DNA of 64,000 bases from the NCBI GenBank assembly GCA_963801165.1, contig CAWDDT010000004.1:384001-448000 (forward strand). The letters run 5' to 3'. Every line of letters starts with the position of its first letter. Position 1 is the first letter of the stretch. The notes under the pieces are model-generated. The model was given only the letters and a program-made list of their open reading frames with translations, was not told where the DNA came from and made no database searches. Positions 28,931 to 52,655 of this stretch are shown in pieces. The translations under genes and the position numbers were made by a program. Source of the DNA: an uncultured bacterium (GTDB taxonomy: Bacteria; Actinomycetota; Acidimicrobiia; Spongiisociales; UBA5794).

Positions 28931-28938
28931 ATGAGTGC

Positions 28939-33655: not shown

Positions 33656-33701
33656 TGATTTGTAATCAGCAGGTCATGGGTTCGAATCCCTTCGCCAGCT
33701 C
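33656..33701 (+). repeat. att duplicate (3' part of tRNA-Thr)
   Basis: Identical to 24018-24063; lacks the 5' acceptor strand and D-arm. Confidence 0.95.
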
Positions 33702-33759
33702 AGTGGAATCCCCCGTTTTGACGGGGGATTCTGTCTATGGGCCGTCGAGGCCGGCACAC

Positions 33760-35490: not shown

Positions 35491-35704
35491 GATCCCATTC
35501 GTCCCGGCTAGGTGCCGTCGCTCCTGGTGCTGCTCCAAAGGTGGTCGCGAGCGCCGGTTCTGGATCGGGTGCTTCGTCCTCGAGATAGAAATCGAGGGCA
35601 CGGCGAATGATCTCCGCCATGGTTACGCCTTCGTCCTCGGCCAGGGCGTCGATGCGTTGGCGCTGCTCCTTAGTGAGGTATACCTGCGTGCGAATTGCGG
35701 ACAT
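35483..35704 (-). CDS. CopG/RHH antitoxin (VapB-like)
   Basis: IRTQVYLTKEQRQRIDALAEDEGVTMAEIIRRALD; overlaps vapC. Confidence 0.87.
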   Translation of the reverse strand: MSAIRTQVYLTKEQRQRIDALAEDEGVTMAEIIRRALDFYLEDEAPDPEPALATTFGAAPGATAPSRDEWDRG

Positions 35705-36279: not shown

Positions 36280-37809
36280 TTAGGCGGCTCCCGATTCGGC
36301 GGTCACCCCGGCCATGAGCAACCCGACCTGTTCCCGGGTCGTCGTCTTGGGGTCCACGATGCCCATCACCTGGCCCTCGTACATCACCGCGATCCGGTCG
36401 GAAACGCCGAATACCTCATCCAGGTCCTCGGAGATCATCAGCACCGCCGTCCTGGCGTCACGCTGCTCGATCAGCCGTTGGTGGATGTACTCGGAGGCGC
36501 CGATGTCGACACCGCGGGTGGGCTGGGCGGCCACCAGCGCCTTGGGAGTGCCGGACAACTCACGGGCGATGATCATCTTCTGAATGTTGCCGCCGGACAG
36601 GTTGCGGGCAGGCGTATCCAGGGTCGGGGTCTTGACCGCATACTCGCCGACCAGTTGCCGGCAATGGCTGGTGATCGCCCCGAAGTCGTAAAGACCCCGC
36701 TTGAGGAACTTCTTGTCGCTGTGCTCGGTCAGGAGCAGGTTCTCCGAGACGGTGAAGTTTGATATCGCCCCATCCTGCATCCGTTTCTCGGGGATGTAGG
36801 CGAGGCCGGTCGCTCGGACCTCAGCAGGCTTCATGCCCGTCACGTCCACCCCGTCAATCGTGATTGTCCCCGCGGTGGGGGTGCGCAAGCCGGCGATTGC
36901 CTCAGCGAGGAGCATTTGACCGTTGCCGGACACCCCGGCGATGCCGAGGATCTCGCCGGCATTCACATCGAGGTCGATGCCCTTTACCCCTTCCTGGCCC
37001 CGGTCCTGCAGCACCCGTAGCCCGCGAATCTCGAGGGTCGCGTTTCCAGGGTTGGCTGCCGCCTTGTCAGGGGCGAGCTTGACGGCTCGACCCACCATCA
37101 TCTGTGCGAGGCTCTCCCGGGTAGCGCCCGCGACGGGGACGTGTCCGGTCACCTTGCCCTGGCGGAGCACCGTGATGCGGGTGCTCAACGCCAGTACCTC
37201 GTGGAGCTTGTGTGAGATGAAGATCAGGCCGCGACCATCGTCGCATAGCTGGCGGAGCGTATCGAAGAGTTGATTTACTTCCTGCGGTGTGAGGACCGCA
37301 GTCGGCTCGTCGAGGATGAGCAAACGCGCATCGCGATATAGGGCCTTGATGATCTCGACCCGCTGCTGCTGACCCACCGCCAACTGCCACACGTATGCGC
37401 TGGGCTCAACCTTCAGCCCGTAGACCTTGCCGAGCTCCAGGATGCGGGCCGAGACCGCATCGAGGTCTGTGACCACCCCGCGGCTTGATCGCAGCCCGAG
37501 GGCGACATTCTCGGCAACGGTCAGGCTCGGCACCAGCATGAAGTGCTGGTGGATCATCCCGATGCCGTTGGCGATGGCATCCGTCGGGCTGGCGATATGA
37601 AGGGGGTTGCCATTGAGGAAGATCTCACCCTCATCGGGGTCGTACAACCCGTAAAGGATCTTCATCAGCGTGCTCTTGCCTGCTCCGTTCTCGCCGAGCA
37701 GGGTGTGTACCTCGCCGGGGAAGAGATCGAAGTCGATGTGGTCGCTGGCGAGAACACCCGGGAACCGCTTGGTGATCCCTCGCATGTCCAGCATCGGGGC
37801 TCCGGTCAA
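36280..37809 (-). CDS. Nucleoside/heterocycle ABC importer ATP-binding protein (two NBDs)
   Basis: GENGAGKSTL, LDEPTAVLTPQE, LSGGNIQK, QPTRGVD; start uncertain. Confidence 0.92.
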   Translation of the reverse strand: MTGAPMLDMRGITKRFPGVLASDHIDFDLFPGEVHTLLGENGAGKSTLMKILYGLYDPDEGEIFLNGNPLHIASPTDAIANGIGMIHQHFMLVPSLTVAENVALGLRSSRGVVTDLDAVSARILELGKVYGLKVEPSAYVWQLAVGQQQRVEIIKALYRDARLLILDEPTAVLTPQEVNQLFDTLRQLCDDGRGLIFISHKLHEVLALSTRITVLRQGKVTGHVPVAGATRESLAQMMVGRAVKLAPDKAAANPGNATLEIRGLRVLQDRGQEGVKGIDLDVNAGEILGIAGVSGNGQMLLAEAIAGLRTPTAGTITIDGVDVTGMKPAEVRATGLAYIPEKRMQDGAISNFTVSENLLLTEHSDKKFLKRGLYDFGAITSHCRQLVGEYAVKTPTLDTPARNLSGGNIQKMIIARELSGTPKALVAAQPTRGVDIGASEYIHQRLIEQRDARTAVLMISEDLDEVFGVSDRIAVMYEGQVMGIVDPKTTTREQVGLLMAGVTAESGAA

Positions 37810-37830
37810 TGTGATGCCTTTCGCTTGCTT

Positions 37831-37863
37831 TGGGTGGGGAGACCGCCAGCGTCTCCCCACCCA
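37831..37863. terminator. Strong intercistronic hairpin between the BMP and ATPase genes
   Basis: 13-bp perfect stem TGGGTGGGGAGAC / GTCTCCCCACCCA. Confidence 0.65.
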
Positions 37864-37878
37864 GGATGATCACCGGAA

Positions 37879-38970
37879 TTAGGAGCCGGTGACGATCGAG
37901 CCGTCGATGATGCCGTTGATGGCGGCATCTGCCTTGGCCCTCACGTCAGCGGGAAGGTCGTAGCCGTCGTTGAACTCGATGACCTCGCCTCCGTTGGCGA
38001 GATTGATGCGGTAGATGTGGTTTGCGTCCGCCGCTTTGTTCTGGACCTGAGCGATGATGTCGCGCAGCACGACCTCCCAGTGATAGACCTGCGAAGCGAC
38101 GACGATGTCCGGAGCGAGCTGCGTTTGGTTGGCCTGAGTGCCGAACCAAAGGACGTTGCTCTCTTGGGCAACTCCGACTGCGCCAACCATGCTCTGGGAG
38201 CTTCCCGTCAGCACGTCGGCTCCGGCGCTGATGTCCGACTGGGCCGTTTCCGAGGCCAGAGCAACATCGCTGAATGAGCCCGTGTAGACGATCTTCACGT
38301 CGGCGTTCGGATTCTCGGCGAGCGCGCCCTTATCAAAGGCGTCGATATACAGCTTGGCGTCACCAACCTCCACCGGTCCGACCACTCCAATGACCCCGGA
38401 CTGGCTCAGGGCGGCAGCCATGACGCCCATCACATATCCGCCCTCGTCGGCCCGCGCCTCATAGGAGTAAACGTTGTCGAGGCCGAAGGTGTCGGTCGTG
38501 GTGCCCCACGCAAAGGTGACGTCCGGATAATCGGGGGCGATCTCCTGCAGCGATCCGCCGTACTGCGAGCCGTGGGCGATGACCAAGTCGTAGCCCTGGT
38601 CGGCGTAGTCGCGAAGCGCCGCGGCGGCATCATCGACCACAAACAGGTTGTCGCTGATCGCGATCTCGACGTTGCCCATCTCGCTCTTGATCACGTTCGC
38701 GGCGTCAACCATCGATTGGGTGAAGGCGAGATCGTTCTGGGCGGACGGCGCCACGATGGCGATTCGCAGCGGTGTCGTCGGCGCCGCGGTGGTTTCGGCC
38801 ATCGTGGTTGGCGTCTCTGCCGCCGTCGTTCCTGGCGCGGCGGTGGTTGCGGCCGCCGTTGTGGTTGTTGGCGCGGCAGTAGTGGTAGCAGCGGTGTCGT
38901 CACCGCCACAGCCGGCGACAGCCAGCGCAACCGCCACAAAAACGGTAAACAAAGCGTATCTGCTTCTCAT
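37879..38970 (-). CDS. BMP-family ABC substrate-binding lipoprotein (purine nucleoside type)
   Basis: Lipobox AVAGC, Thr/Ala linker, NDLAFTQS, GYDLVIAHG, YTGSFSD. Confidence 0.88.
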   Translation of the reverse strand: MRSRYALFTVFVAVALAVAGCGGDDTAATTTAAPTTTTAAATTAAPGTTAAETPTTMAETTAAPTTPLRIAIVAPSAQNDLAFTQSMVDAANVIKSEMGNVEIAISDNLFVVDDAAAALRDYADQGYDLVIAHGSQYGGSLQEIAPDYPDVTFAWGTTTDTFGLDNVYSYEARADEGGYVMGVMAAALSQSGVIGVVGPVEVGDAKLYIDAFDKGALAENPNADVKIVYTGSFSDVALASETAQSDISAGADVLTGSSQSMVGAVGVAQESNVLWFGTQANQTQLAPDIVVASQVYHWEVVLRDIIAQVQNKAADANHIYRINLANGGEVIEFNDGYDLPADVRAKADAAINGIIDGSIVTGS

Positions 38971-39023
38971 TGGTTTGTTCCTTCTCTCTGTCTTATCCGG
39001 GTCCGGCGAACCGGCCCGGGAAC

Positions 39024-39956
39024 TCATGTACCTCTCTCGAACGGTTTGGTCAGAGCCGTGGGTGCGCGGAATCGCTGGGCAACGACGACGAGGGCCAGGA
39101 TGGTGACCACCGCGGGAGCCATGGCCGCGATATCGGACCAGCTGCGCGGGATGACCCCGATCGTCTTCAGTTGCAGCACGATTGAGTTTACGAAGCCGTA
39201 GAGCAATGCGCCAGCCATCACGCCCAGCGGGCGCCAAGCGCCGAAGTAAACGAGGGCGATAGCGATGAACCCGGCAGCGTTTGTCAAGTTGCCCTGGAAG
39301 ATCTTGAGGTCGATCGCCAGCGCGGCACCAGCGATGCCGGCGAGCGTCCCGCCGATCATCACCGTTGCGTAGCGAATCCGGTTGACGTTGACCCCGAGGC
39401 TGTCCGCGGCCTCCGGGTTCTCACCGACGGCCCGGATCCTCATCCCAAATGTGGTCCAGTTGATGATGAAGATGCTGATCGGGACCGCGGCGAACGCGAG
39501 ATAGACGATGATGCTGTGCCGGAACAGCATCTCGCCGACGACCGGGATGTCGCTCAGGCCGGGAATGTCGAGCTTGGGGAAGCTCGCGATCGGAAGTGGG
39601 GAGCCGACCCATCGTTGGAAGAGCAGGTCGCTGAAACCCAGGCCGAACAGATAGACGCCGATACCGCTGATGCCCTGCTGGGCTTTGAGGGTCACCGACA
39701 TGATCGCGGTGAGGATCCCAAACAACAGACCGACCAGCAAGCCGACCAACAGTCCGATCCACACGTTGCCGGATTGCAGGACCGCGTAATAGCCACCGAA
39801 CGCACCGAGCAGCATTACCCCGTCGACTCCGAGGTTGAGGACACCGCTGCGCTGGCCGTACATCTCGCCGAGCGATGCGATCAGGAGCGGGACGGCGAGC
39901 CTGATTCCGGATGCGACCGTTGCGATGAGCACGGCCTGGGTAAAGAATTTACTCAT
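39024..39956 (-). CDS. Nucleoside-type ABC permease
   Basis: QRSGVLNLGVDG, RAVGENPEAADSLG, GFIAIALVYFGAWRP. Confidence 0.9.
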   Translation of the reverse strand: MSKFFTQAVLIATVASGIRLAVPLLIASLGEMYGQRSGVLNLGVDGVMLLGAFGGYYAVLQSGNVWIGLLVGLLVGLLFGILTAIMSVTLKAQQGISGIGVYLFGLGFSDLLFQRWVGSPLPIASFPKLDIPGLSDIPVVGEMLFRHSIIVYLAFAAVPISIFIINWTTFGMRIRAVGENPEAADSLGVNVNRIRYATVMIGGTLAGIAGAALAIDLKIFQGNLTNAAGFIAIALVYFGAWRPLGVMAGALLYGFVNSIVLQLKTIGVIPRSWSDIAAMAPAVVTILALVVVAQRFRAPTALTKPFERGT

Positions 39957-41128
39957 AGCGCTACCCCGGGCGGGTCGGGCGAGTCGAGTTCCGGTGGTCC
40001 GGCGGCCGCGGTGTCTGCCGAAGCCCCGGTGAGAGGAGTGGTGTCCTCGCCGACGACCGGCCGTCGCTCCAGTAGTCGCTGCCGGAAGCGCTCGGTCGAG
40101 ACCACGAAGATGACCACGATCCCGTTGAGCGCCAGGATCAAAGCAGAGGGGACCTGGACGGCGCGTTGCAGCGAATTGCCACCAACCAGCAGGCCACCGA
40201 ACAGGAAGGAGGCCGGGATCGTCCAAAGCGGATGGAGACCGCCGAAGAGGGCGGCGACGATCCCGTTGAAGCCGGCCGATCCGGTGAACCCTGCCGTCGA
40301 TCCGTCGGTGATCATACGGTGGCTCTCGCTGCCAAAGACGAGCACGGCGCCGGCGAGTCCCGCCATCGCGCCGCTCAGGGTGAGCGCAAGGACGATCGTT
40401 CGCTTCACCGGGATTCCGGCATAGCGCGAGGCGTCTGTGTTCTGACCGACGGCCCGCAGCCGGTAGCCGAGCGGGGTGCGCCACAGCAGGATGTAAGCGC
40501 CAATTGCCGCCACAACCGCCAGCAAGGGCCCGATATGGAACCGGCCCGATCCCAGGAGGAGGGGAAGGTCGGCGCTCTCAGTCAGCCGCTGGGTTTGTGG
40601 GATCAGGTTGGCTCCATTCGGGTCGATGAGCGGGCCGCGCAGCAGATAGTTCATCAACTGGACCGCGACCACGTTCAACATGATGGTGCTGAGGATCTCG
40701 TTGACCCCGTAGTACGCCTTGAGCGCTCCGGGGACCGCGCCCCAGATGGCGCCGCCGACGATACCCGCCGCGAGGACTAGCGGGAGCATGACGATGGCGG
40801 GCAGTGAGGGTGCGTTGAGGGCGACGATGGTTGACAGCAGCGCTCCGGCGACCATCTGACCCTCGCCGCCGATGTTGATCACGTTCGCCCGGAAGGCGAT
40901 CGTGATTCCGACGCCGACGAATAGCAGCGGGGTGGCCTTGAGGGCGGTCTCGGTGAGGGCCTTCCAGGAGCCGAATGCCCCGGAAAGCATCGCCCGCAAC
41001 CCTTCCAACGGGCTGGCGCTGAACGCGAGGAGCATGAGCGCTCCGAGCAGGAGGGCGGCAAGCACCGATCCGATCGAAACCGCGTATGCGATGATCCGGC
41101 GCTGGCGGATCCCACCGAGCGAAGTCAT
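39953..41128 (-). CDS. Nucleoside-type ABC permease
   Basis: NIGGEGQ, VNEILSTIMLN, RAVGQN, GFNGIVAALFG. Confidence 0.9.
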   Translation of the reverse strand: MTSLGGIRQRRIIAYAVSIGSVLAALLLGALMLLAFSASPLEGLRAMLSGAFGSWKALTETALKATPLLFVGVGITIAFRANVINIGGEGQMVAGALLSTIVALNAPSLPAIVMLPLVLAAGIVGGAIWGAVPGALKAYYGVNEILSTIMLNVVAVQLMNYLLRGPLIDPNGANLIPQTQRLTESADLPLLLGSGRFHIGPLLAVVAAIGAYILLWRTPLGYRLRAVGQNTDASRYAGIPVKRTIVLALTLSGAMAGLAGAVLVFGSESHRMITDGSTAGFTGSAGFNGIVAALFGGLHPLWTIPASFLFGGLLVGGNSLQRAVQVPSALILALNGIVVIFVVSTERFRQRLLERRPVVGEDTTPLTGASADTAAAGPPELDSPDPPGVAL

Positions 41129-41287
41129 CCGCGGCGCTCCTTTCGAAGTTCGGCTATTCAACCACCGGGATCCGGGTCAGGCTGCTATTTGCTTTACGAA
41201 ATGTCAAGTCGAAGGCGATGCGTTTGCGGCGTCGTGGTCGCGATCGAGATCAATAGCTCCGGGCTCCTCGCTGATCAGGTGCGGCCA

Positions 41288-41908
41288 TCAGTTGTGCTCG
41301 CTCGGGCCCATGATCGTGATGCCCTCGGTCTCCTCGACGTGCCGGACGAAGGCGTAGGTGTCCTCACGGCCGTCGGAATGCTTGCGCGCTATCCCGGGTT
41401 CGAGTATGCCATCGGTCTTCGCGACGACGACATACGGTTCACGCGCCGCTAGGCCCGCCGCACAGTGCATGTCGAATTCATCCAGGTCGCTTGTGACAAA
41501 CGCTTTCTCGATCCCGGCCCCCCGGGCGATCGCCGCCAGGTCGACCAAGCCCGAGGCGGTGTGGGTACGCGGGCCACCGATGGACTGGTACTGCTCGTTG
41601 TCCCAGACGACGACGAGCAGGTTCTCCGGGCGCTCGTTGCCCAGCGTCGCAAGAATGCCGAGGCCGAAGAGCATCCCGCCGTCGGTGTCCAGCGAGACGA
41701 TCTGCCGGTGCGGGAGCCCGACCGCCAGCCCGAACGCCTCGGGGGTCACGCAGCCCAGCTGCTGCTGGAAGAGGCTGGCCCGGCGCATGTGCGGGGCGGC
41801 GTTGTACCACTCGTCGACGGCGCCGCCTAGGGACAGCACCACCAGTTCGTCGCTCAGGCGCGCACCCAGGCGTTGCATGCACGCGAACCGGCGCAGGCGT
41901 GGGCTCAT
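41288..41908 (-). CDS. TPP-dependent decarboxylase beta subunit (ComE/phosphonopyruvate decarboxylase-like)
   Basis: TPP motif DTDGGMLFGLG...WDNEQYQSIGG; ATGA-coupled to the alpha subunit. Confidence 0.8.
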   Translation of the reverse strand: MSPRLRRFACMQRLGARLSDELVVLSLGGAVDEWYNAAPHMRRASLFQQQLGCVTPEAFGLAVGLPHRQIVSLDTDGGMLFGLGILATLGNERPENLLVVVWDNEQYQSIGGPRTHTASGLVDLAAIARGAGIEKAFVTSDLDEFDMHCAAGLAAREPYVVVAKTDGILEPGIARKHSDGREDTYAFVRHVEETEGITIMGPSEHN

Positions 41909-42405
41909 CGAACGATTCCTCCGCCGAGCACAATGGCCGAGTGGTGGTAGGCGGCGTAGGACCAAGCATACGCATCGGTGATGGCCCGCTCGATCTCGTC
42001 GACGTCGCGCACGATCCGGTACGGTGTCCGCAGCGCCTGCAGGATCGGCTCCATCGTGATGCCGTGCGGCACAGCCCACCAGTTGTTCTCTCCGAGCTCA
42101 CCGCGATAGCTCATGACCATGATCACCGGGATTCCGGCGCCCAGGCCCATCCGGGCCAGGTGCTCTGTGGCTGCCCGGAGCCCGGAGTTCTCCATCACCA
42201 GCGCGGCCCGCTTTCCGGACAGGAAGACGCCGCCGCAGATGGCGGCCCCCTCGCCCTCGTTAGTCACCGGGATGGTGCGCAGGTCGGGGTCCGCTTCCAG
42301 GGCCGGGTACAGCTCCTTGAGAAGCGAGTCCGGCAGGTACGCGACGACGCTCACGCCGGCAGCCTTCAGGCCCCGGACGACAGCGTCGACGGCATCGGGT
42401 GTCAT
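41905..42405 (-). CDS. TPP-dependent decarboxylase alpha subunit (ComD-like)
   Basis: YLPDSLLK, VTNEGEGAAICGG, MENSGL, MSYRG. Confidence 0.82.
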   Translation of the reverse strand: MTPDAVDAVVRGLKAAGVSVVAYLPDSLLKELYPALEADPDLRTIPVTNEGEGAAICGGVFLSGKRAALVMENSGLRAATEHLARMGLGAGIPVIMVMSYRGELGENNWWAVPHGITMEPILQALRTPYRIVRDVDEIERAITDAYAWSYAAYHHSAIVLGGGIVR

Positions 42406-42610
42406 GAGCGCTCCATCGGATCTGTCCTCGGACGGGTTCTCGACCGGGTGGTCACTGTAGCCCGATGACTCGGAGGCTGATTCGTGTCCGATCGACGTTG
42501 TCCTGGTCGTCAAGAGCCCGGGCCGCTGAACGAGGATCAGCAGGGTTTCGACGAAAGGTGTCGACGATGCGCTGGCGATTGCCAGCCGTTGCCCCAAGAA
42601 AAGGCATGCG

Positions 42611-42633
42611 TGTTACATGTACGTTGGTAGAAT
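42611..42633. promoter_or_regulatory. Putative GntR operator and -10 in the divergent promoter
   Basis: TGTTACATGTA (42611-42621) recurs inverted at 43457-43467; TAGAAT at 42628. Confidence 0.6.
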
Positions 42634-42668
42634 GCGGCGTTGAGCGAGATTGAAAGGATTGTTCACCC

Positions 42669-43379
42669 GTGGTCTATGAGACTCTCAAGTCGATCCGGCC
42701 CGGTCGTCTTCTTGCCGATGAGGCCTACGCACAGCTGAGCGAGGGCATTCTGCGCAACGAGCTTCCGCCGGGAACTTCGCTGTCGGTGCCGGAGCTTTCA
42801 CGGCAGCTTGGGATCAGCCGCAGCCCTGTTCGTGAGGCTGTGCAGAGGCTTATATACAATGGGCTTGCCGACTATCGGGGACGGCGTGGCACGGTCGTTT
42901 CTTCGATAGGTATCCCTGAGTTCGTCGCTCTGCTCGATGTTCGGGAGGTGTTGGAGGGCTTGGCGGCTCGAAGAGCGGCGGAATTGGCCACGTCTGCTGA
43001 ACGCGCACGTCTCGAGCAACTCCATGCCGGGTTCGGTGGCATCCCCCGGGGGGCCGAGGCATCGATTTCGGGTTTCGTTGAGCACGACATGGCGTTTCAC
43101 CGACTCATTCGTGGAATGGCCCGAAACGAGGAGCTGGCGATGATCCTCGAGCGATCACAGGCGCGCGCACATCTGTCTATGCATTCGCTGTGGGGTGGTA
43201 CTCACAACGTTGATGCCGCGCAGGCAGAGCATGGCGACATCTGTGCCGCGATTGTGGCGGGAGATGGTGAACTGGCCGAAGTGGCGGCGAAACGTCACAT
43301 CGCTGGGCTTCGAAGCCGGACGCTTGCGTTCTCGGCCGGGAAGACACTGCCGGTCACAGAATCTGCTGCTTCTGGTTGA
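42669..43379 (+). CDS. GntR-family regulator (FCD domain)
   Basis: LSRQLGISRSPVREA, REVLEGLAAR, DMAFH, EHGDI...H. Confidence 0.93.
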   Translation: MVYETLKSIRPGRLLADEAYAQLSEGILRNELPPGTSLSVPELSRQLGISRSPVREAVQRLIYNGLADYRGRRGTVVSSIGIPEFVALLDVREVLEGLAARRAAELATSAERARLEQLHAGFGGIPRGAEASISGFVEHDMAFHRLIRGMARNEELAMILERSQARAHLSMHSLWGGTHNVDAAQAEHGDICAAIVAGDGELAEVAAKRHIAGLRSRTLAFSAGKTLPVTESAASG

Positions 43380-43440
43380 TGGTTCGGCCGGGTCTGTCAA
43401 ATCACCCGGGTCGAGGATTCTCGGTGAACCGCAGGTCTAC

Positions 43441-43468
43441 TTGACGTGAAACATCTTACATGTAACAT
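43441..43468 (+). promoter_or_regulatory. Promoter and GntR operator of the xdh operon
   Basis: TTGACG-N16-TAACAT overlapping the palindrome TTACATGTAA (43456-43465). Confidence 0.6.
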
Positions 43469-43499
43469 ACATCAAGAGTTGGAGGAGGTGCAGAGTATC

Positions 43500-44411
43500 T
43501 TGACGTACGGCTCAGTAGAGGCAGTCAGTCCCGTCGACTCGGTCCCTCGACCAATGTCATGGGACGAGGCTCTTGCCCTCCGATCGGCACACCCCGAGAT
43601 GGTGCCGATTTGTGGTGGAACAGATCTCATGGTCGAGATCAACTTTGGCCGCACGCGGCCCGCACGACTGCTTGACCTGACGCATATCCCGGAACTGGAC
43701 TCCTGGGAGCTAGTAGGAGACGGAACTGCTGTGCGTATAGGCGCCGGCGTTTCGTACACCAGGATCATCTCTGAGCTCAAAGACCTGTGCCCCGGTCTGG
43801 CGCAGGCCGCGCGTACCGTCGGGTCACCTCAAATTCGCAATCGTGGGACCGTGGCCGGCAACCTCGGGACCGCATCGCCCGCTGGTGATTCGCATCCGCC
43901 GCTCTTTGCCGTGAGGGCCACGGTCGAGGCAGCGTCGACACGGGGTACTCGATTGATCGCGATCGATGACTACTTCCTCGGTCCCAAGCGGAATGCACTC
44001 GAACCCGACGAGCTCATCCGGGCGATCCTCGTCCCGGTCGCCACGGGCCCGCAGCAGTTTGCCAAGGTTGGGCCCCGAACCGCCATGGTCATAGCCACCG
44101 CGTCGTTTGCGGTGAGTCTCGACCCGGTCGACGGCCGGGTCGGCACCGGCATCGGCTCTGCGGGGCCGACTCCCTTGCGTGCGAGAGCGGCAGAACAGCT
44201 GCTCGAAGCTGTCTTGCGGGACCGCTGGTCGGTTCCCGGTCTTCCGGATGCCGACACGCTTGCTGACTTTGGGAGGCACGTGGCCGCTGCGGCTTCGCCC
44301 ATCGACGATGTTCGTGGCACAGCCGACTATCGCCGTCACGCCTTGTCCGTAATTTCGGGGCGCTGCCTCAAGTGGGCATGGACGCAGCTACACGAGGAGT
44401 CGCAGCAATGA
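43500..44411 (+). CDS. Xanthine dehydrogenase-family FAD-binding subunit
   Basis: GGTDLMV, GSPQIRNRGTVAGNLGTASPAGD, PIDDVRGTADYRR; start uncertain (TTG after GGAGGAGG). Confidence 0.92.
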   Translation: MTYGSVEAVSPVDSVPRPMSWDEALALRSAHPEMVPICGGTDLMVEINFGRTRPARLLDLTHIPELDSWELVGDGTAVRIGAGVSYTRIISELKDLCPGLAQAARTVGSPQIRNRGTVAGNLGTASPAGDSHPPLFAVRATVEAASTRGTRLIAIDDYFLGPKRNALEPDELIRAILVPVATGPQQFAKVGPRTAMVIATASFAVSLDPVDGRVGTGIGSAGPTPLRARAAEQLLEAVLRDRWSVPGLPDADTLADFGRHVAAAASPIDDVRGTADYRRHALSVISGRCLKWAWTQLHEESQQ

Positions 44412-44890
44412 GGGTGCGGCTGACGGTCAATGGTATCGATCAGGTCATTGATGACGCTGCGGAGATGGAGAGCCTGCTGTTCCTGCTTCGGGAGCGGCTG
44501 CAGCTGCGGGGAAGCAAGAATGCTTGCGAACAGGGAGAGTGTGGCTCGTGCTCGGTGCTTTTGGATGGCGTGCTGGTATGCGCCTGTCTTGTCGCGACGG
44601 GTCAGGTCGACGGGGCGAATGTCGTCACCGTTGAAGGGCTCGCAGGAACGGGAGAAGGAGAGCCTCAACACCCGATTCAGAAGGCGTTTGTGGACAGCGG
44701 CGCCGTCCAATGCGGCTTCTGCACGCCGGGCATGGTCATGTCGACGCTTGCCCTACTCGAGGCGAATCCGTTGCCCGACGAATTAACGGTTCGAGAAGAG
44801 CTTTCGGGGAACCTCTGCAGGTGTACCGGCTACAAGAAGATTCTCGATGCGGTGAACATGGCTGCGGCGCAGATGGGAGGTAGCTCATGA
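44408..44890 (+). CDS. Xanthine dehydrogenase-family 2x[2Fe-2S] subunit
   Basis: CEQGECGSC...[18 protein letters not shown]. Confidence 0.94.
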
Positions 44891-45900
44891 AGGCTACCGA
44901 AAAGATCCCGGTCACCATCCTCACCGGCTTCCTTGGTTCGGGCAAGACCACGCTGCTGAATTACATCTTGCGTGAACAGCACGGTAAGCGCATCGCCATC
45001 ATCGAGAACGAGGCCGGCGAGATCGACATCGACTCCGACCTCGTGGTTGCCTCAGACGAAGAGATCTACAAGATGGCCAACGGCTGCATCTGTTGCGTCA
45101 CTTCGGTTCGTGCGGACCTGCTCGATGTCATCAAGAAGCTGATGAAGCGCGAGGACCGCATCGACTACATCATGATCGAGACCAGCGGTCTCGCCGATCC
45201 GATGCCGGTTGCCCAGTCCTTCTTCCAGGAGGAGGCGGTACTGGATGAGGTGAACCTCGACGCCATTGTGGCCCTCGTAGACTCAAAGCACATCGAGCAA
45301 CACCTCGACGATATTCGCTACGACGGCATAGACAACCAGGCGGTCGATCAGATCGTGAGCGCCGACCGCATCATCATCAACAAGATCGATCTGGTCGATG
45401 CCGCCACAGTTGATCGCATAAAGGCGAGGGTCAGAGAGCTGAACCAGCGCTCCGAAATCGACACATCTAGCTACGCAGAGGTGAACCTCGACGGGGTTCT
45501 GGGGACCAGGGCTTTTGAGCTGTTGCAGCGAGCAGCCAGTGATCCGACCTTCCTGGAGAACCACTACGTCCACAGTCACGATCCCGCTGTTGAAACCCAC
45601 TCGATTCGTTTGAGTGGCGAACTTGATGGCGACGCCGTGGAGCGGGTTGCCGCGACCGTTGCAGAGGACTACGGAGCAGACCTCTTGCGCTGGAAGGGTG
45701 TTCTCGCGATAGCCGGCAACCCGAATCGAGTGGCGCTGCAAGGAGTACACCAGGTCTACGAGCTGCACGATCTCGATGAATGGCCGACCGGTCACCGGGA
45801 CAGCCGGGTCGTCTTCATTGGGAAAAGCCTTCGCAAGGATGATCTCGTCGAGAGGTTCGAGAGCTGCGCTGTGGACTCATCTCAGGTGGTGCCGCAATGA
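44887..45900 (+). CDS. COG0523/CobW-family metallochaperone GTPase
   Basis: [32 protein letters not shown]...QGVH. Confidence 0.93.
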
Positions 45901-48284
45901 GCGCGGGGGGAACCACCCTGAGCGACAGAGCGACCCGTCAGAGCGCGGCAGGTGTCGGTACGTCGGCATCTCGCCCCGACGGGATTCCGAAGGTCGATGG
46001 CTCATTCATCTACTCCTCCGACGAGTATCACGAGGGGTCGCTGTGGGGAGCCACCCTCCGTAGCCCCCATCCTCGGGCTCGCATCGTGTCGATCGACACC
46101 TCGGCCGCCGAAGGCGTTGACGGTGTTGCAGCGGTGTTGACGCATCAGGATGTGCCGGGATCGAAGACGTACGGAATGAAGATCTCGGATCAACCTGTCC
46201 TCGCTTTCGACGAGGCCCGGTACCAGGGCGAACCAGTTGCGCTGGTTGCAGCTACCCATCCCGATATCGCGCGCCGGGCCTGTGGTCTCATCGAGGTGCA
46301 ATACGAGGAGCTGATTCCGAATACGGATCCGGAGGCGTCCTTGACAGGCACCGTCGACGGTCTTCGCAACGGTGGTTTGGCCCGTCATGTGAAGATCCGT
46401 CATGGCGATGTGGCCGCGGCCCGTGACCATGCCGACGTGGTGATCGAGGCCCGGTATGAGCTCGGGACCCAGGACCCAGCGTTCCTCGGGCCGGAATCCG
46501 GTCTTGCCGTTCCGGTTGGCGACGGTGGCGTCGAACTCTACGTCTCTTGCCAGAACCTCCATCTCGATCAGAAGCAAGTCGCGGCGAGCCTCGGGTTGCC
46601 GTTGGAGAAGGTCCGACTCGTCCTCTCGGGGGTTGGGGGAGCGTTCGGTGGCAAAGAAGACCTGAATGTTCATATCCACGCCTGCATGCTCGCGCTGGCA
46701 ACCGGCCGACCAGTCCGCATGGTCTATAACCGCGAAGAGTCCTTCTTCGGGCACGTCCACAGGCATCCGGCGACCGCTACCGTGGAGCTGGGCGCGACAA
46801 ACGACGGGAGGCTGGTCTTCAGCAAAGTCCGGCTGGTTCTCGACGGTGGTGCGTATACCTCTACCTCAGAAATAGTGATTGCCAACGGCTCGTACTTTGC
46901 GGCCGGTGCCTATCGATGCCCCAACGTGGAGATCGATGGCTATGCGACGTACACCAACAACCCTCCGTGCGGTGCCATGCGTGGATTTGGTGCCGTGCAA
47001 TCTTGTTACGCGATCGAGTCAGCCATGGATCGTCTGGCTCGTGAACTCGGCCTGCACCCGCTGGACCTCCGGATGCGCAACGCAATCACCGCCGGTGACC
47101 TCCTCCCCACCGGTCAGCTCATCGATGGTCCAGCGCCGGTGCGGGAATTACTGATGTTCCTGCGCGACCTGCCTCTTCCAGAGGAACCTGCCGATGAGTT
47201 GTGCGACCTTCGATCCCGTCCCGGCGGTGTCGGCAACGTCACTCATGGCGAAGGCATCAAGCGCGGGATCGGCTATGCGCTCGGCATGAAGGCCATCGGG
47301 TTCTCCGGCGGAGTCGATGACACCTCGACGGCACAGGTCACGCTGTTGATTCACGACGGCGAGCCGATTGCCGAGGTGTACTGCGCAGCTGCAGAATTGG
47401 GTCAGGGCATCGTGACTCTCGAGACCCAGGTGGTCCGCACCGAGCTCGGAGTCAGCAAGGTCGTGCTGGCGGACAAAGACACCCTGATCGGCGAAGCCGG
47501 GGCATCGTCCGCCTCGCGCCAGAGCTGGATGAGCTGCGGTGCCGTGCTCGGAGCCTGCGAGTCGGTTCGTGAAGACCTATTGGAACGGGCCGCTGTGATG
47601 GTCGGCGAGCCCGCCGGGTTGTTGCGGTTTGACGGCATCGACATCTGTATGGCGGAAGACGGTCGACCCCTGATCAGCGCTGCTGAAGTTCTCGGTGAAG
47701 AGCCCGTCTCCCACACCTTCACCTATCACCACCGTCCCACCGAAGCGATCGACCAGGAGCGCGGGCAGGGCGACGCCCATATAGCCTTCGCCTATGCGGC
47801 CCATCGAGCGGTGGTGGACGTTGATGTCGAGCTCGGGTTGGTGCGTGTCGTAGAACTCGCCGTTGCTCAAGACGTCGGTCGGGCATTGAATCCCATCGCG
47901 GTCGAAGGGCAGATCGAGGGGGCATCGGTGCAAGGTCTCGGTCTGGCCGTCATGGAGGAGATACAGATCGACGAGGGCCATGTCCGCAATCCGTCTTTCA
48001 CCGACTACCTCATTCCGACGATGCTCGACGTTCCACCGATGCCGATGAAGGTGTTCGAGTTTCCCCACCCCGACTCGCCGTACGGGCTCAACGGAGTTGG
48101 CGAACCGTCCAGCTTGTCCTCGACTCCCGCAATTCTCAATGCTCTGCGTTCTGCCACAGGTCTTGACCTGCGGCGGGCACCTGTCCGACCGACCGATTTC
48201 CTATCAACCGATTTCCTATCAACCGATTTCCTATCAACCGATTTCCTATCAACCGATTTCCTATCAAAGGAGGAAACTGCATGA
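45897..48284 (+). CDS. Xanthine dehydrogenase-family molybdopterin subunit (actinobacterial PucD-like)
   Basis: [45 protein letters not shown] (catalytic Glu). Confidence 0.92.
48192..48266 (+). repeat. Perfect 15-bp tandem repeat x5 (ACCGATTTCCTATCA; encodes TDFLS x5)
   Basis: Five identical units ending directly at the AAGGAGG RBS of the next gene. Confidence 0.95.
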
Positions 48285-49201
48285 TTATCGACACCCATCT
48301 ACATCCAACCAACGTGGTGGATGAGGCGTGGCGTCACACGGGCACTCCGTTCACCGGTGAGCGGATGATCGAGATGATGGATGGCCCCTATTGGATAAAC
48401 GGCAAGCCGCGGCGTATCGACATGGGGTTCATCCAGAACCCTCCCGGGAACACGGTATGGCGTGACGGTCGTGCTGGTGGCCGCGAAGGTATTCGCGACT
48501 ACATGAAGTACATCACCGAGCTGACCCAGACGTACCCGGACCGGTTCATCGGCAACTTCACGTACAACCCGCGTTATGGACCGGAGAACGGTGCTGCCGA
48601 GCTTGAGTTCCATGTCAAGGAATTCGGCTTCAAGATGCTGAAGCTGCATTCGAACATGCACGCGTACCGTCCCGACCGGGCCCTGGACTGGCTACGGCCG
48701 GTAATGAAGAAATGCGACGAGCTTGGTGTGATCGTCCTGATCCACACCGGTGACGGGCCCTATTCGATTCCGACACAGTTCTATCCGATCATTCGCGAGT
48801 TCCCGAACGTCAAGTTCATCATTGGGCACTTCGGCGTGCAGACCGGTGGTGTGTATTGCTTCGAGGCCTTCTGGATGATCATGGACTCACCAAACGTGTG
48901 GGGCGAATCCGGTTGGCTGCTGCAATCACGGATCGTCGAATTCGCCAAGGAGATGCCGCGCGATCGTCTGGTATTTGGCACAGACTCGCCACCAAACGAC
49001 CCGGGCATGTGGCTGACAGAGCTCGAAGTTCTCTGCCATGAGCCACCGCAGGGCCTTAATATCGGCGAGGACCAACTCGAGGACTACATGGGCAACAACA
49101 TTGCCCGACTTGTCGGAATCACCCCGACGGCCCCACCAAAGGACGTCGAGGCCGCCAAGGCGCAACTTGCCGCCGGTAGCTACGGCACCCCGATTACATA
49201 G
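48281..49201 (+). CDS. Amidohydrolase superfamily protein (Amidohydro_2-like)
   Basis: IIDTHLH, LKLH, IHTG, IGHFG, VFGTDSP. Confidence 0.88.
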   Translation: MIIDTHLHPTNVVDEAWRHTGTPFTGERMIEMMDGPYWINGKPRRIDMGFIQNPPGNTVWRDGRAGGREGIRDYMKYITELTQTYPDRFIGNFTYNPRYGPENGAAELEFHVKEFGFKMLKLHSNMHAYRPDRALDWLRPVMKKCDELGVIVLIHTGDGPYSIPTQFYPIIREFPNVKFIIGHFGVQTGGVYCFEAFWMIMDSPNVWGESGWLLQSRIVEFAKEMPRDRLVFGTDSPPNDPGMWLTELEVLCHEPPQGLNIGEDQLEDYMGNNIARLVGITPTAPPKDVEAAKAQLAAGSYGTPIT

Positions 49202-49212
49202 CGGAGCGAGCA

Positions 49213-49830
49213 ATGTCCGGACGCGAGACAGCGGGATCGAGTGGCGCAAGCACTCGCCCGCGTCTCGTGGTCGGGATCACCGGCTCGAGCGCTCCGCACT
49301 ACGGACTTCAGCTGCTGAGGTGCCTCCATGAATTGGGTTCAGTAGAGACGCATCTGGTGGTTTCGGAGCAGGGCAGGGAGAACATCAAGATCGAGGCGGG
49401 CCTTGATCCCACTCTAGTGAGCGGCTGGGCCGACGTCGTCCACGATCCACGCGACTTCGCAGCGGTGATCTCGTCGGGTTCGTTTCTAACAATGGGAATG
49501 GTGATAGCTCCGTGCTCGATGAGCACACTCGCCTCGATCGCTCACGGGATCACAACGAACTTGTTGGTCCGTGCCGCGGACGTGTGCCTGAAGGAGCGAC
49601 GGCGGCTGGTGCTGGTTCCGCGGGAAACACCGCTTAGCCTGATTCATCTCCGCAACATGGTGGCCGTCACCGAAGCGGGCGCCACGGTACTACCCCCGAC
49701 GCCCGCGTTCTACCACGACCCACGCTCAATCGATGACCTCATTGCGCAGACGACGGGCAAGATCCTTGATCAATTCGGGATACGTCACGACCTTTTCAAG
49801 AGGTGGCGAGAGGAGCCTGACCTCACGTGA
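49213..49830 (+). CDS. ubiX: Flavin prenyltransferase UbiX
   Basis: GITGSS, ISSGS, APCSMSTL, RAADVCLKERR, PRETP, PAFY. Confidence 0.95.
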   Translation: MSGRETAGSSGASTRPRLVVGITGSSAPHYGLQLLRCLHELGSVETHLVVSEQGRENIKIEAGLDPTLVSGWADVVHDPRDFAAVISSGSFLTMGMVIAPCSMSTLASIAHGITTNLLVRAADVCLKERRRLVLVPRETPLSLIHLRNMVAVTEAGATVLPPTPAFYHDPRSIDDLIAQTTGKILDQFGIRHDLFKRWREEPDLT

Positions 49831-51214
49831 GTGCATTCACCGCCGATCAAGACCTTCACTCCTTCGTTGCCTCATACGAGGAGGAGTACCCCGATGATGT
49901 GTTGATAGTCGACCAACCCGTATCTCCGGTCCAGGATGTTACGGGCGTCGTCTGGGAACTCGCCTCGGCGGGCCGTCACGAGATGCTTCACTTTTCGAAC
50001 GTCGTCGGTATCGAGCACGACGTCGTGACCAATATTTTCGCGTTCGCGACGGCGGATCGCACGCCTCCTCGGGGTGGATGCAGGATCGCTACACGAGGAG
50101 TTCCAAAGGCGCGCCACGAATCTGATCCCACCCAAGGAGGTGGCTACAGCTCCTGTGCTGGACGAAGTCCATGCGTCGGGAGGATTCGACCTACATGACT
50201 TGCCGCTCATCACCCATTTCGAAACCGACCGTGCCCCCTACATCACGAGTGGAATCGTCGTCGCTGAGGATCCGAACGGTGTCGGCAACCTGAGCTACCA
50301 CCGGGCCATGGTCCACTCCTCTTCCGAACTGGCCACCAGCCTCCATTCCCGGGGCGATTTGTGGCGACTGCTGCAGGGAGCCGGGGAGCGGGGCGAGGTG
50401 CTCCCCGTGGCGATGGTGGTGGGCGGGCATCCGCTGTTCATGCTGGGAGCTGCGGCCCGTGTTCCGATCACGGTGGATGAGCGTCAGGTTGCCGGGGGCC
50501 TCTTTGGGGAGCCGCTCCAGGTAGTGCGCACGCCACTCCACGGGATTCAGGTGCCGGCCACATGCGGAACTCGTGCTCGAGGGCTTCATTGATCCGGCCG
50601 CCCACGCGGCGGAGGGGCCATTCGGGGAGTTCAGCGGATATTCCTCCGACCGATCGACGAACAACGTTATCCATGTAGAGAACGTGCTCAAACGCCGCAA
50701 CGCAGTACTGGTCGATGTCGTTGGCGGCAACTCGGCGGAGCATTTGAACCTCGGTCGAATCCCCCGCGAGTCCGAGATGAGCGAGAAGCTCAAAGCCAGG
50801 TTCCCGTCAGTCACCGCGGTCCACTATCCAAGCTCCGGTACGCACTTTCACTGCTATGTCGCGGTGGACCAACGCCGACCCGGAGAGGCACGGCAGATCA
50901 TGCTCGCCCTTCTCGGTTGGGATCCATACCTCAAGACGGTGGTGGCGGTCGACTCCGATGTCGAATGCTCGAGCGATGCCGATGTCCTCTGGGCGCTGGC
51001 GACACACTTCCAGCCGGCGCGCGACCTATTTGTCATCCCGGGCCTTCCCGGCAGCGCGCTGGACCCATCGTCGATGCCCGACGGATCAACCTCGCGCATG
51101 GGCCTTGACGCTACCCGCGGGGCGGATTTCCGCGGCACGCGCATTGCCATATCGGCCGAAGCGCGATCCCGGGCAGCCGAAATTGTTGCTGACCGTATAG
51201 GCGGAGGACGGTGA
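49827..51214 (+). pseudogene. UbiD-family prFMN-dependent (de)carboxylase with two apparent +1 frameshifts (possibly sequencing errors)
   Basis: VVTNIF|SRRRIARLLG, LPLITH..D...YITSG, NLSYHR, P..AELVLEG, EGPFGEFSGY, VAVDSDV...VLWAL; extra bases near 50043 and 50563. Confidence 0.85.
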
Positions 51215-51304
51215 CCGTCGAGTGAACTCCACACCACTGTGGCGCGGTGCCGGGTCGAGGCGCAACGGGTCGCATTGCCGGTGCTGGCCCCGTTGACAGC
51301 AGGC

Positions 51305-51760
51305 ATGTCCGACCGTCGTGATGAGGCATTGGCCTACGTCGAGAGCCACAACGTCATGACGCTTGCCACAAATGGCACTCGAGGGCCGTGGGCCACTGCC
51401 GTGTTCTACGTGAACGAAGGTTTCACGCTCACGTTCCTCTCCTCGCCGCGGAGCCGACATGCGAGTGATCTGGCTGTAGATTCTCGCTGTGGCGCAGCAG
51501 TTCACGAGGACTACTCAGATTGGCGGCAGATCAGGGGCCTCCAACTGGAGGGGAATGTCCGGGTGTTGTCAGGCACCGAGCAGCGCAAGGCCATCAAGCG
51601 ATATGCACAGAAGTTCCCCGTAACCCGTCTCGATCAAGCACCCGCGGTGGTACGGGCGGCTCTGGAACGAGTGGCCTGGTACGAGTTTGTTCCGGATCGT
51701 TGCTTCTTCGTCGACAACACACACAGCTTCGGCCGTCGGGACGAAATCCTGCTCGCATGA
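51305..51760 (+). CDS. Pyridoxamine 5'-phosphate oxidase-like FMN-binding protein (UPF0306-like)
   Basis: HNVMTLAT, PWATAVFY, SRH, IRGLQLEG, DNTHSFGRRDE. Confidence 0.85.
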   Translation: MSDRRDEALAYVESHNVMTLATNGTRGPWATAVFYVNEGFTLTFLSSPRSRHASDLAVDSRCGAAVHEDYSDWRQIRGLQLEGNVRVLSGTEQRKAIKRYAQKFPVTRLDQAPAVVRAALERVAWYEFVPDRCFFVDNTHSFGRRDEILLA

Positions 51761-51863: not shown

Positions 51864-52655
51864 TCACGCAACTTCACGTGAGTGTGCCGGGCTCATGGTC
51901 GCTTGTGGTGTCGGTTCCAGCGAGTCTGCAATTGCCGCCCACGATGTGTCGGCGGCGATTCTCGCCCACACCTTGCGGACTTTGCGGATGTTGGCATGAA
52001 TCGTGCGCATGATGTTGTCCGCCTCTTGCACCGATATCTCATCCTGATCCCGGCTGAGGAGCATGCTCAGTTGGTCCCGGCAGCCGCCGAGCACCTCAGC
52101 GAGGGCCGAAGCCGGGCCGCGGACGTGCCTCGGGCGGAACGTGCCGGCAAGGTCGTCGACGGCGTCGAGCGCCTTGCCGAGCTCCTGCCGATAGAGATCA
52201 TCCATTGACCGTTGGTCTGCGAGCCATCTGCAGCGAGTGACCGCCGCCAGAATCCGGTCGAGCGCAATCTGCCCTGTGTGGAGGAGATTGGTGGTCGAGA
52301 TATTGGTCGTCGAGATAGTAGTGGTCGAGACTGTCTGGTCCGGGTCTTTGCTCGGCGCCAGGTCGGCGGGTGCCGATGCAGGCTCGACGAAGCCGTGCGC
52401 GGCTTGCGGCAAAGCCGTGGATGGAAGGCGACCGCCCGGCGATGTGAGTCTCGGAGTCGATCCGGCTGCTGCCCTTGCCATCACGGTGGCGTGGACCCGC
52501 TGGATGCGTTGGGCGACATCCTGTGCCAGATCCACCACGACCATGCGCCGGCCCCCGGTGAGTACCAGGACCGTCTCCGGCATCTGTTCGATTTGCTCTA
52601 TCGACTTGACGTTGATGAGGACGGTCCTGTTGCGGAGTGGCGTGATCGGAATCAT
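51864..52655 (-). CDS. FlbD/SwrD-like N-terminal domain fused to an unknown helical domain
   Basis: MIPITPLRNRTVLINVKSIEQIEQMPETVLVLTGGRRMVV fits the FlbD pattern; ATGA overlap with the upstream gene. Confidence 0.65.
   Translation of the reverse strand: MIPITPLRNRTVLINVKSIEQIEQMPETVLVLTGGRRMVVVDLAQDVAQRIQRVHATVMARAAAGSTPRLTSPGGRLPSTALPQAAHGFVEPASAPADLAPSKDPDQTVSTTTISTTNISTTNLLHTGQIALDRILAAVTRCRWLADQRSMDDLYRQELGKALDAVDDLAGTFRPRHVRGPASALAEVLGGCRDQLSMLLSRDQDEISVQEADNIMRTIHANIRKVRKVWARIAADTSWAAIADSLEPTPQATMSPAHSREVA
52286..52330 (-). repeat. Imperfect 15-bp coding repeat x3 (STTTI/STTNI/STTNL)
   Basis: GATTGGTGGTCGAGA, TATTGGTCGTCGAGA, TAGTAGTGGTCGAGA. Confidence 0.7.

Follow-up and report, generated by a model that had tools for sequence, protein, structure and literature searches.

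A probable Acidimicrobiia version of the bacterial lumazine degradation cluster

What compound does a bacterium break down with a gene cluster that joins a molybdenum (Mo) hydroxylase, an amidohydrolase and a UbiX/UbiD pair? The question is raised by positions 36280-51760 of a 64,000-nucleotide stretch of DNA (the window; all coordinates below refer to it) from contig CAWDDT010000004.1 of assembly GCA_963801165.1, which belongs to an uncultured member of the Acidimicrobiia (Actinomycetota). The original prediction took the region for an O2-independent route of purine or N-heterocycle degradation, and knew of no described pathway with this combination of enzymes. That statement has been overtaken by the lumazine pathway of Doi et al. 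(2025, PMC12391406), a route of bacterial pteridine degradation described only in that year and mainly for soil Proteobacteria. We propose another reading: the region is quite probably the Acidimicrobiia version of the bacterial lumazine/pterin degradation cluster, predicted from its sequence to convert a pteridine into xanthine.

The isomerase and decarboxylase module

The main text of Doi, Maeda and Takaya (2025, Commun Biol 8:1292, PMC12391406) describes cluster I of Cupriavidus sp. LA-1, for which it was demonstrated biochemically that lumazine is converted to xanthine. A three-subunit Mo dehydrogenase, LuDH (LA1_0145-0147), oxidizes lumazine to 7-hydroxylumazine and then to 6,7-dihydroxylumazine. 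DHLI, a zinc enzyme of the amidohydrolase-2 type, isomerizes 6,7-dihydroxylumazine to xanthine-8-carboxylate, and xanthine-8-carboxylate decarboxylase (XCDC), the UbiD protein LA1_0150 working with the UbiX protein LA1_0144, decarboxylates this product to xanthine. DHLI comprises a catalytic beta subunit (LA1_0151), which has His6, His8 and Asp235, and an alpha subunit (LA1_0152) without the two histidines; the LA-1 beta subunit is inactive without alpha. The GTP-binding protein LA1_0143, a constant companion of beta, increases the solubility and activity of DHLI. Cluster I further includes a pterin deaminase, two purine/pyrimidine permeases and two regulators. According to the same text, the type of xanthine oxidoreductase (XOR) and the type of deaminase differ by lineage: clusters of Actinomycetota have no DHLI alpha, divergent molybdopterin (MPT) subunits and a cytosine-deaminase-like gene, Streptomyces having the MPT subunit only and Microbacterium no XOR.

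The resemblance of the window to cluster I of LA-1 lies in the enzyme types that are clustered in both: a hydroxylase with Mo, FeS and FAD subunits, a GTPase of the COG0523 type, a protein of the Amidohydro_2 family that has His6, His8 and Asp235, UbiX, UbiD and a transcription regulator. As a reference for this comparison, we used related loci of Burkholderiaceae. Tandem pairs of a beta-like gene (73-81% identical to the window protein) and an alpha-like gene (64-68%) are present in 33 of 200 scored Burkholderiaceae genomes, and 12 of these pair loci were excised as 20-kb stretches. In five of the 12 (L112, L113, L114, L120 and L121, here called Cupriavidus-type loci), alpha, beta and UbiD follow each other and are separated by about 3 kb from FAD, FeS and Mo; within the excised stretch, UbiX also appears in four of the five and the COG0523 gene in two (L113 and L121). 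The arrangement mirrors that of LA1_0152 to LA1_0143, and L112 encodes beta and UbiX proteins that match Cupriavidus taiwanensis proteins exactly.

The closest resemblance concerns the amidohydrolase (48281-49201, plus strand; Pfam PF04909). The original prediction had cast this protein as a hydrolytic ring opener; it belongs instead to the ACMSD/LigW-type Amidohydro_2 family and is not a ring-opening hydrolase of the dihydropyrimidinase type. Its sequence contains all of His6, His8 and Asp235, whereas Ser6 and Tyr8 stand in place of the two histidines in alpha-like copies of other genomes. Identity is 75-78% with the beta subunits of the five Cupriavidus-type loci, 79-81% with other Burkholderiaceae beta copies and 65-82% with proteins whose names point to Ensifer, Sinorhizobium, Pseudomonas, Paraburkholderia, Streptomyces and Nocardia, among others. 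On this sequence evidence, the amidohydrolase is an orthologue of the catalytic DHLI beta subunit. Among solved structures in the PDB it has only weak LigW-type matches (E about 7e-5), and no NCBIfam model matches it.

The two genes that follow encode the UbiX flavin prenyltransferase (49213-49830, plus strand; PF02441) and the UbiD-family decarboxylase (49827-51214, plus strand; Pfam UbiD_N, UbiD and UbiD_C). UbiX scores 250.5 against NCBIfam NF004685 (cut-off 188) and is 50-58% identical to UbiX of the Burkholderiaceae clusters, or 51-57% when only the four Cupriavidus-type loci that include it are considered. The UbiD sequence is read in three pieces, for reasons given below, which are respectively 46-51%, 56-58% and 71-74% identical to UbiD of the five Cupriavidus-type loci. 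By this comparison it is an orthologue of XCDC. In the PDB, the entry that an intact orthologue of the window UbiD matches best is the 2,5-furandicarboxylate decarboxylase of the HmfF type (6h6v, 6h6x), like XCDC a decarboxylase of a heteroaromatic acid that depends on prenylated flavin mononucleotide (prFMN); this relation is distant (191 bits over about 400 residues). XCDC itself, according to the main text of Doi et al., is inactive on furan carboxylates. Both ubiX and ubiD are single-copy in the genome.

A COG0523/CobW-family GTPase (44887-45900, plus strand; PF02492 and PF07683) is encoded between the FeS and Mo subunits of the hydroxylase. Its translation contains a GCICC motif, its gene is single-copy in the genome, and it is 42-50% identical to the GTPases of the Burkholderiaceae clusters (42-45% for the Cupriavidus-type loci L113 and L121). 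By analogy with LA1_0143, it is likely to be a zinc chaperone for the amidohydrolase. Taken together, the identities to the Cupriavidus-type loci argue that isomerase, decarboxylase, UbiX and chaperone form an orthologous module, and that the Mo hydroxylase beside it is of another lineage.

To place the module among its relatives, genome contigs were scanned by alignment with the amidohydrolase, which returned 581 relatives; the best 80 loci were kept. The nearest 60 come mostly from metagenome-assembled genomes (MAGs) titled Acidimicrobiia, Acidimicrobiales, Ca. Aldehydirespirator, Ca. Spongiisociaceae and Ilumatobacteraceae, and the other 20 from Paraburkholderia, Caballeronia, Amycolatopsis and proteobacterial MAGs. 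A UbiD gene lies beside the amidohydrolase in 53 of the nearest 60 loci and in all 20 others (73/80 overall), and a COG0523 gene is found nearby in 34/60 and 19/20. A Mo subunit at least 55% identical to that of the window is present near the amidohydrolase in 24 of the nearest 60 loci and in two of the other 20. A second, alpha-like amidohydrolase is seen in none of the nearest 60 and in 13 of the other 20. The original prediction had looked to conserved co-occurrence of the amidohydrolase, UbiD and the ComDE-like enzyme: the first two do travel together, and the third, as described below, does not. The conserved isomerase/decarboxylase/chaperone module is thus seen in Acidimicrobiia, and DNA near-identical to the window occurs in metagenome runs from soil and salt marsh.

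Hydroxylase, importer and attached genes

The hydroxylase is encoded by an FAD subunit gene (43446-44411), a 2Fe-2S subunit gene (44408-44890; PF00941, PF03450 and PF01799 jointly for these two subunits) and a Mo-cofactor subunit gene (45897-48284; PF01315, PF02738 and PF20256), all on the plus strand. All three XOR subunits are therefore present, and they are not orthologous to LA1_0145-0147. The Mo subunit scores 792.1 bits against the NCBIfam pucD model TIGR03196, for a cut-off of 783.65, so that the PucD-like label given to it originally holds by a margin of about 1%. In this score it resembles the Bacillus-type xanthine dehydrogenase PucD; unlike that enzyme, it is encoded in a cluster of the lumazine type instead of among genes of purine catabolism. 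Of the solved structures, nicotinate dehydrogenase, 4-hydroxybenzoyl-CoA reductase and quinoline oxidoreductase come closest to it. Its identity to Mo subunits encoded in Acidimicrobiia and Amycolatopsis clusters is 64-80%, and the XOR type of the window is shared by the Amycolatopsis loci L072 and L077 (Mo 66-67%, FAD 59% identical). By analogy with LuDH, we propose that the enzyme acts as a lumazine/7-hydroxylumazine hydroxylase. Automatic naming would label it a xanthine dehydrogenase, a misreading that the lumazine context corrects.

Two further observations concern this gene and its family. A perfect 15-bp tandem repeat of 5.1 copies (48192-48267) gives the Mo subunit a C-terminal run of five TDFLS units and lies immediately ahead of the amidohydrolase gene, the start of which overlaps the Mo gene; homologues align to about residue 770 of 795 only, so that this repeat tail is private to the window sequence. 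By tblastn, the genome holds about 11 loci encoding Mo subunits of the XOR family, on several contigs.

A Pfam scan and a listing of open reading frames (ORFs), which form the basis of all gene assignments in the window, recovered in place every gene named in the original prediction and resolve the region into two divergent operons. The translational coupling claimed for the plus-strand operon is borne out: ATGA overlaps connect FAD with FeS, FeS with COG0523, COG0523 with Mo and Mo with the amidohydrolase, and a GTGA overlap couples UbiX with UbiD. A GntR/FCD regulator (42669-43379, plus strand; PF00392 and PF07729) stands between the two operons, divergent from the importer operon. In the intergenic sequence 5' of its gene (42598-42668), we find the palindrome TACATGTA and a TAGAAT box. 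Homologues of this regulator at 40% identity or above are present in 16 of the nearest 60 loci, and the two operons are probably under its control.

The minus-strand operon starts with two subunits of a thiamine pyrophosphate (TPP) enzyme and continues with a BMP-type ABC importer composed of two BPD_transp_2 permeases (39953-41161 and 39024-39950; both PF02653), a Bmp/PnrA-like substrate-binding lipoprotein (SBP; 37879-38970; PF02608, 137 bits) and, as the last gene, an ATPase with two ABC_tran domains (36280-37860; PF00005, in two stretches). The N-terminus of the SBP ends in a VAGC-type lipobox, and the protein scores 109 against the NCBIfam model ABC_BMP_B6 (cut-off 400). That the importer belongs with the cluster, as first supposed, is supported by its recurrence in Acidimicrobiia. 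An SBP of this type, at 45% identity or above, lies by the cluster in 22 of the nearest 60 loci and a matching ATPase, at 55% or above, in 21 of them; both counts are zero among the other 20 loci. To the cluster-linked transporters of related Acidimicrobiia, the SBP is 53-62%, the ATPase 60-63% and the permeases 56-65% identical, against 24-30% (SBP) and 40-50% (ATPase) for BMP transporters that lie beside ComDE-like genes elsewhere. The SBP is a likely pteridine receptor.

A separate peculiarity of the SBP gene is a Thr/Ala/Pro-rich linker after the lipoprotein signal (38770-39040). It is hypervariable, with many substitutions and indels, relative to L123, a metagenome contig of a 98.2% identical strain; the flanking 6 kb are nearly identical.

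The TPP enzyme is encoded by a ComD-like TPP_enzyme_N gene (41905-42405), the first of the operon, and a ComE-like TPP_enzyme_C gene (41288-41887), both on the minus strand and single-copy in the genome. Like sulfopyruvate decarboxylase ComDE and phosphonopyruvate decarboxylase, it is split into two polypeptides and has no middle domain. It differs from them in scoring far below the equivalog cut-offs and in having family neighbors other than sulfonate or phosphonate genes. The scores against the NCBIfam sulfopyruvate decarboxylase models TIGR03845 and TIGR03846 are 100 (cut-off 147.95) and 79.8 (cut-off 221.5), respectively. A true sulfopyruvate decarboxylase, raised at the outset as an alternative identity, is thus not what the models recognize in either subunit.

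The original prediction made this enzyme a step of the pathway. Its distribution speaks otherwise: at E<=1e-50, it is found in none of 199 scored Burkholderiaceae genomes, a sample that includes lineages with demonstrated lumazine degradation, whereas the isomerase pair is present in 33 of 200 genomes of the matching sample. Of the 80 amidohydrolase loci, just three, L056, L057 and L062 from alphaproteobacterial MAGs, contain close homologues (68-74% identical). Conversely, a metagenome scan with the ComE-like protein yielded 80 loci at 76-100% identity, of which one, the contig L123 from the strain closely related to the window, contains lumazine-cluster genes. The other 79 show no DHLI, UbiD, UbiX or COG0523 gene on the available DNA, many of these contigs being short. 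Neighbors were counted in the 28 loci that reach 15 kb or more; the usual partners there are a GMC oxidoreductase (24/28), an Amidohydro_1 protein of the cog0402 type (24/28), the oxygenase parts VanA_C (17/28) and Rieske (16/28), aldehyde dehydrogenase (17/28), parts of BMP-type transporters (15-17/28) and an XOR of FAD-Mo fusion type (12/28). The nearest solved relatives of the Amidohydro_1 partner are purine and triazine deaminases.

Its rare joining to the lumazine module, together with its absence from the Burkholderiaceae sample, led us to reject the ComDE-like enzyme as a core step. It is probably accessory, and its sequence relatives suggest a widespread uncharacterized family that accompanies N-heterocycle catabolic genes and is occasionally joined to the lumazine module. 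Function searches returned only generic 'TPP-dependent enzyme' clusters in the atlas, PDB entries with uninformative titles (9u8q and 9u8r) and no relevant paper. One may speculate that enzymes of this family act on side chains, of keto-acid or acyloin nature, that substituted pteridines or related amino-heterocycles carry (those of the erythropterin or sepiapterin type being examples), the products of which would enter the lumazine-to-xanthine core; with the BMP importer, the region would then form a pteridine-to-purine salvage system for a bacterium unable to catabolize urate. We give this extension little credence at present.

The locus L056 presents an arrangement of its own. Positions 7034-17342 encode, on one strand, ComD, ComE, a divergent UbiD (38-42% identical to that of the window), a DHLI-beta-like protein (80-81%), a Xan_ur permease, FAD, FeS and Mo subunits and a COG0523 protein. 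L057 and L062 hold the same homologues, and this variant locus is without UbiX.

The last gene of the plus-strand operon encodes a PNPOx/YhbP-like FMN-binding protein (51239-51760; PF01243, 48.9 bits), which scores 57.6 against the NCBIfam YhbP model (cut-off 176). A homologue is found in only one of the 80 loci (L001, 59% identical), and we regard the protein as accessory.

From these components, a route can be proposed in which the isomerase and decarboxylase steps are assigned by orthology and the hydroxylase, importer and salvage steps are inferred. The BMP-type importer would bring in a pteridine, for example lumazine or one of its hydroxylated forms. The PucD-like hydroxylase, in analogy to LuDH, would place water-derived oxygen on C7 and C6 to give 6,7-dihydroxylumazine. 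The COG0523 GTPase may load or fold the zinc amidohydrolase, as the role of LA1_0143 suggests, and the latter, through His6, His8 and Asp235, is predicted to isomerize 6,7-dihydroxylumazine to xanthine-8-carboxylate. With prFMN supplied by UbiX, the UbiD-family enzyme would then release xanthine and CO2, and xanthine would pass into purine salvage via phosphoribosyltransferases. The ComDE-like enzyme and the PNPOx-like protein would be add-ons, dispensable for this core.

The window also differs from cluster I of LA-1. It has neither the non-catalytic alpha subunit nor the pterin deaminase; its Mo enzyme is of the other, PucD-like XOR lineage; a BMP-type ABC importer takes the place of the purine/pyrimidine permeases; the ComDE-like and PNPOx-like genes are attached; and the host, one of the Acidimicrobiia, has no uricase route. 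The beta-only DHLI is shared with the Actinomycetota clusters (Streptomyces, Microbacterium) described in the main text of Doi et al. (PMC12391406); unlike these, as they are described there, the window has all three XOR subunits and no cytosine-deaminase-like gene. The type of pathway is therefore already known. What is new here is the host lineage, the PucD-like hydroxylase, the beta-only isomerase, which that text notes for Actinomycetota generally, the BMP importer and the attached ComDE-like enzyme. If the lumazine reading is true, pteridine recycling would extend to a wider range of organisms and habitats than known, the cluster would offer a natural test of isomerase function without an alpha partner, and the SBP would become a candidate pteridine-binding BMP protein. 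In bacteria lacking uricase, the pathway may feed purine salvage rather than serve as a carbon source.

The interrupted ubiD gene and rival explanations

Several observations weigh against the lumazine reading. The assignment of the cluster is based on homology and synteny. The subunits of the hydroxylase are 34-35% (Mo), 40-46% (FeS) and 35-38% (FAD) identical to LuDH of the Cupriavidus-type loci; with this identity in the Mo subunit and a score just over the pucD cut-off, the enzyme could act on xanthine or another heterocycle. No DHLI alpha subunit is found in the genome, which by tblastn holds a single copy of the amidohydrolase, and no Amidohydro_1 or deaminase gene that could provide the pterin deaminase occurs among the ORFs scanned at 17995-63142. 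The cluster is also rare among relatives: among other sampled genomes, one of 300 from the class and none of 16 from the same family contain the isomerase. In addition, the sole ubiD of the genome is frameshifted twice in the assembly, at sites that the contigs identical to the window fail to reach and next to DNA that shows no general tendency to indels, as detailed below.

The GC content at third codon positions is 0.62-0.75 in the plus-strand operon and 0.79-0.88 in the operon of the ComDE-like enzyme and importer, for a genome median of 0.778, a suggestive difference only. That the plus-strand values fall below the median, together with the rarity among relatives, gives a hint that the plus-strand cluster was acquired by gene transfer.

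The ubiD gene had been taken for a single open gene. It is in fact read in three frames, 49827-50042, 50044-50565 and 50567-51214, which place UbiD_N, UbiD and UbiD_C in different frames. The two +1 shifts lie within 520 bases: the first, near 50043, falls in a TTTT run, and the second, near 50562-50565, is outside any homopolymer. Six UbiD queries were run against the gene by tblastn, five of them intact orthologues of related loci and the sixth from L054. Those of L051, L037, L001 and L026 cover it contiguously across the three frames, that of L072 does so with one residue skipped at the second shift, and that of L054 aligns weakly (41-43%). Apart from the two shifts, the gene contains no stops or further damage.

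Should both shifts be real in this strain, the pathway would be broken: the cell would stop at xanthine-8-carboxylate at most, and the cluster would be decaying. Two shifts so close together in the only ubiD, the second of them outside any homopolymer, are what such decay might look like. Furthermore, the public contigs identical to the window end before both sites, and the contig L123 shows no indels relative to the window over 39100-45459, 6.3 kb next door, which indicates that the assembly is not generally riddled with indels. Against this stand Logan contigs of four public runs, aligned to 49700-51400, in which the extra bases are absent wherever the sites are covered. Base 50043 is missing from all three covering runs, one contig being otherwise identical to the window over 585 bases (49728-50312), and base 50562 is missing from all four, in contigs 92-98% alike, which must come from related strains. 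Two runs have an extra C behind 51214, a third indel within the same 1.2 kb that points to a local consensus problem; the first shift falls in a TTTT run. Finally, once the frame is corrected, 30 of the 35 listed differences between strains occupy third codon positions, as is typical of a gene under selection. An intact frame is most likely the norm in the population, and the shifts local errors of the consensus or else private changes of very recent date. We therefore consider a broken pathway a serious, if unlikely, contender.

The same types of enzyme may also serve another substrate, such as a substituted lumazine or pterin, an alloxazine-type compound or a related N-heterocycle, the PucD-like hydroxylase setting the substrate and the isomerase and decarboxylase acting on analogues. 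The hydroxylase, not a LuDH orthologue and with solved relatives that act on nicotinate, 4-hydroxybenzoyl-CoA and quinoline, leaves room for this, as do a transporter that differs from the nucleobase permeases of LA-1, the additional ComDE-like and PNPOx-like genes and the dependence of XOR and deaminase types on lineage that Doi et al. describe in their main text. However, an isomerase that remains 75-81% identical across phyla with its catalytic residues kept argues for the same reaction, and identity of about 60-70% along most of UbiD points the same way. A different substrate thus appears fairly improbable. Far less credible still is the O2-independent purine route first proposed, in which the Mo enzyme makes xanthine or urate, the amidohydrolase opens the ring and UbiD decarboxylates an aminoimidazole carboxylate ahead of a TPP step. 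A Mo subunit that narrowly passes the pucD model, a genome without uricase and allantoin enzymes, and BMP-type transporters, often associated with purine nucleosides as the Pfam name has it, are in its favor. But the amidohydrolase and UbiD are orthologous to enzymes that make xanthine from 6,7-dihydroxylumazine, the TPP enzyme is missing from the 199 Burkholderiaceae genomes and usually neighbors other genes, and a search of the available literature for the prFMN-dependent aminoimidazole-carboxylate decarboxylase of clostridial purinolysis, invoked in its support, found no such enzyme. What survives of that proposal is its chemical logic: Mo hydroxylation, a ring step by an amidohydrolase-family enzyme and prFMN decarboxylation all fit the lumazine pathway. 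The purine-degradation reading is not supported, as this pathway makes xanthine. Pterins, which had been listed among the substrates for assay, fit the closest characterized system.

Fate of xanthine and surroundings of the cluster

If the lumazine pathway operates in this bacterium, what becomes of the xanthine? The host belongs to the Acidimicrobiia by the named relatives of its DisA protein, and its genome is 4.55 Mb long, 98.2% complete and 5.6% contaminated. The original prediction had noted that the window contains no uricase, HIU hydrolase or allantoinase and proposed a search of the genome for uricase; the absence is confirmed and extends to the whole genome. No match was found genome-wide for uricase, HIU hydrolase, OHCU decarboxylase or PuuE (PF01014, PF00576, PF09349 and TIGR03212), and matches to the allantoinase model TIGR03178 are all below cut-off. 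Allantoicase (PF03561) is also unmatched in the genome, a result that is uninformative as control genomes were unmatched too. Three HGPRT matches exceed the cut-off, and an XPRT-like gene scores 148 bits (cut-off 164). Lacking a uricase/allantoin route, the cell would probably direct xanthine into salvage, which is the most economical reading.

A deaminase is encoded elsewhere in the genome. About 310 kb upstream of the cluster, locus L203 (own genome, C4:110001-124000) encodes an amidohydrolase of the 8-oxoguanine-deaminase type (NF006055, 661 bits; cut-off 532) directly upstream of a paralogous FAD/FeS/Mo enzyme, whose Mo subunit is 46% identical to that of the window and scores 680.7 with the pucD model, under the cut-off. 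Isoxanthopterin deaminases are close relatives of the 8-oxoguanine-deaminase family. This kinship means that L203 could supply a deaminase, a lead rather than a result, and makes it a candidate deaminase and hydroxylase pair for pterins or oxidized purines.

Upstream of the region lies an integrated element of about 9.7 kb (23989-33703), which starts with tRNA-Thr (23989-24065) and a phage-type integrase (24099-25274) and also contains IS-like fragments (rve, 25960-26466; HTH_38, 26390-27250) and an ECF sigma factor (32790-33338). We considered whether the cluster rides on this island and rejected the idea: a 46-nt direct repeat of the 3' half of the tRNA-Thr, at 33658-33703, ends the element ahead of the cluster. 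Between this repeat and the importer operon are transposase-like fragments, at 34-36 kb, and a PIN-domain protein (35146-35601, minus strand). Just downstream of the cluster, a protein with an FlbD domain (flagellar/swarming) and a long non-homologous tail is encoded at 51864-52664 on the minus strand. On the same strand, at 55532-57559, a 675-residue fusion protein combines a Rieske 2Fe-2S domain at its N-terminus with a full TPP enzyme of three domains (TPP_enzyme_N, M and C).

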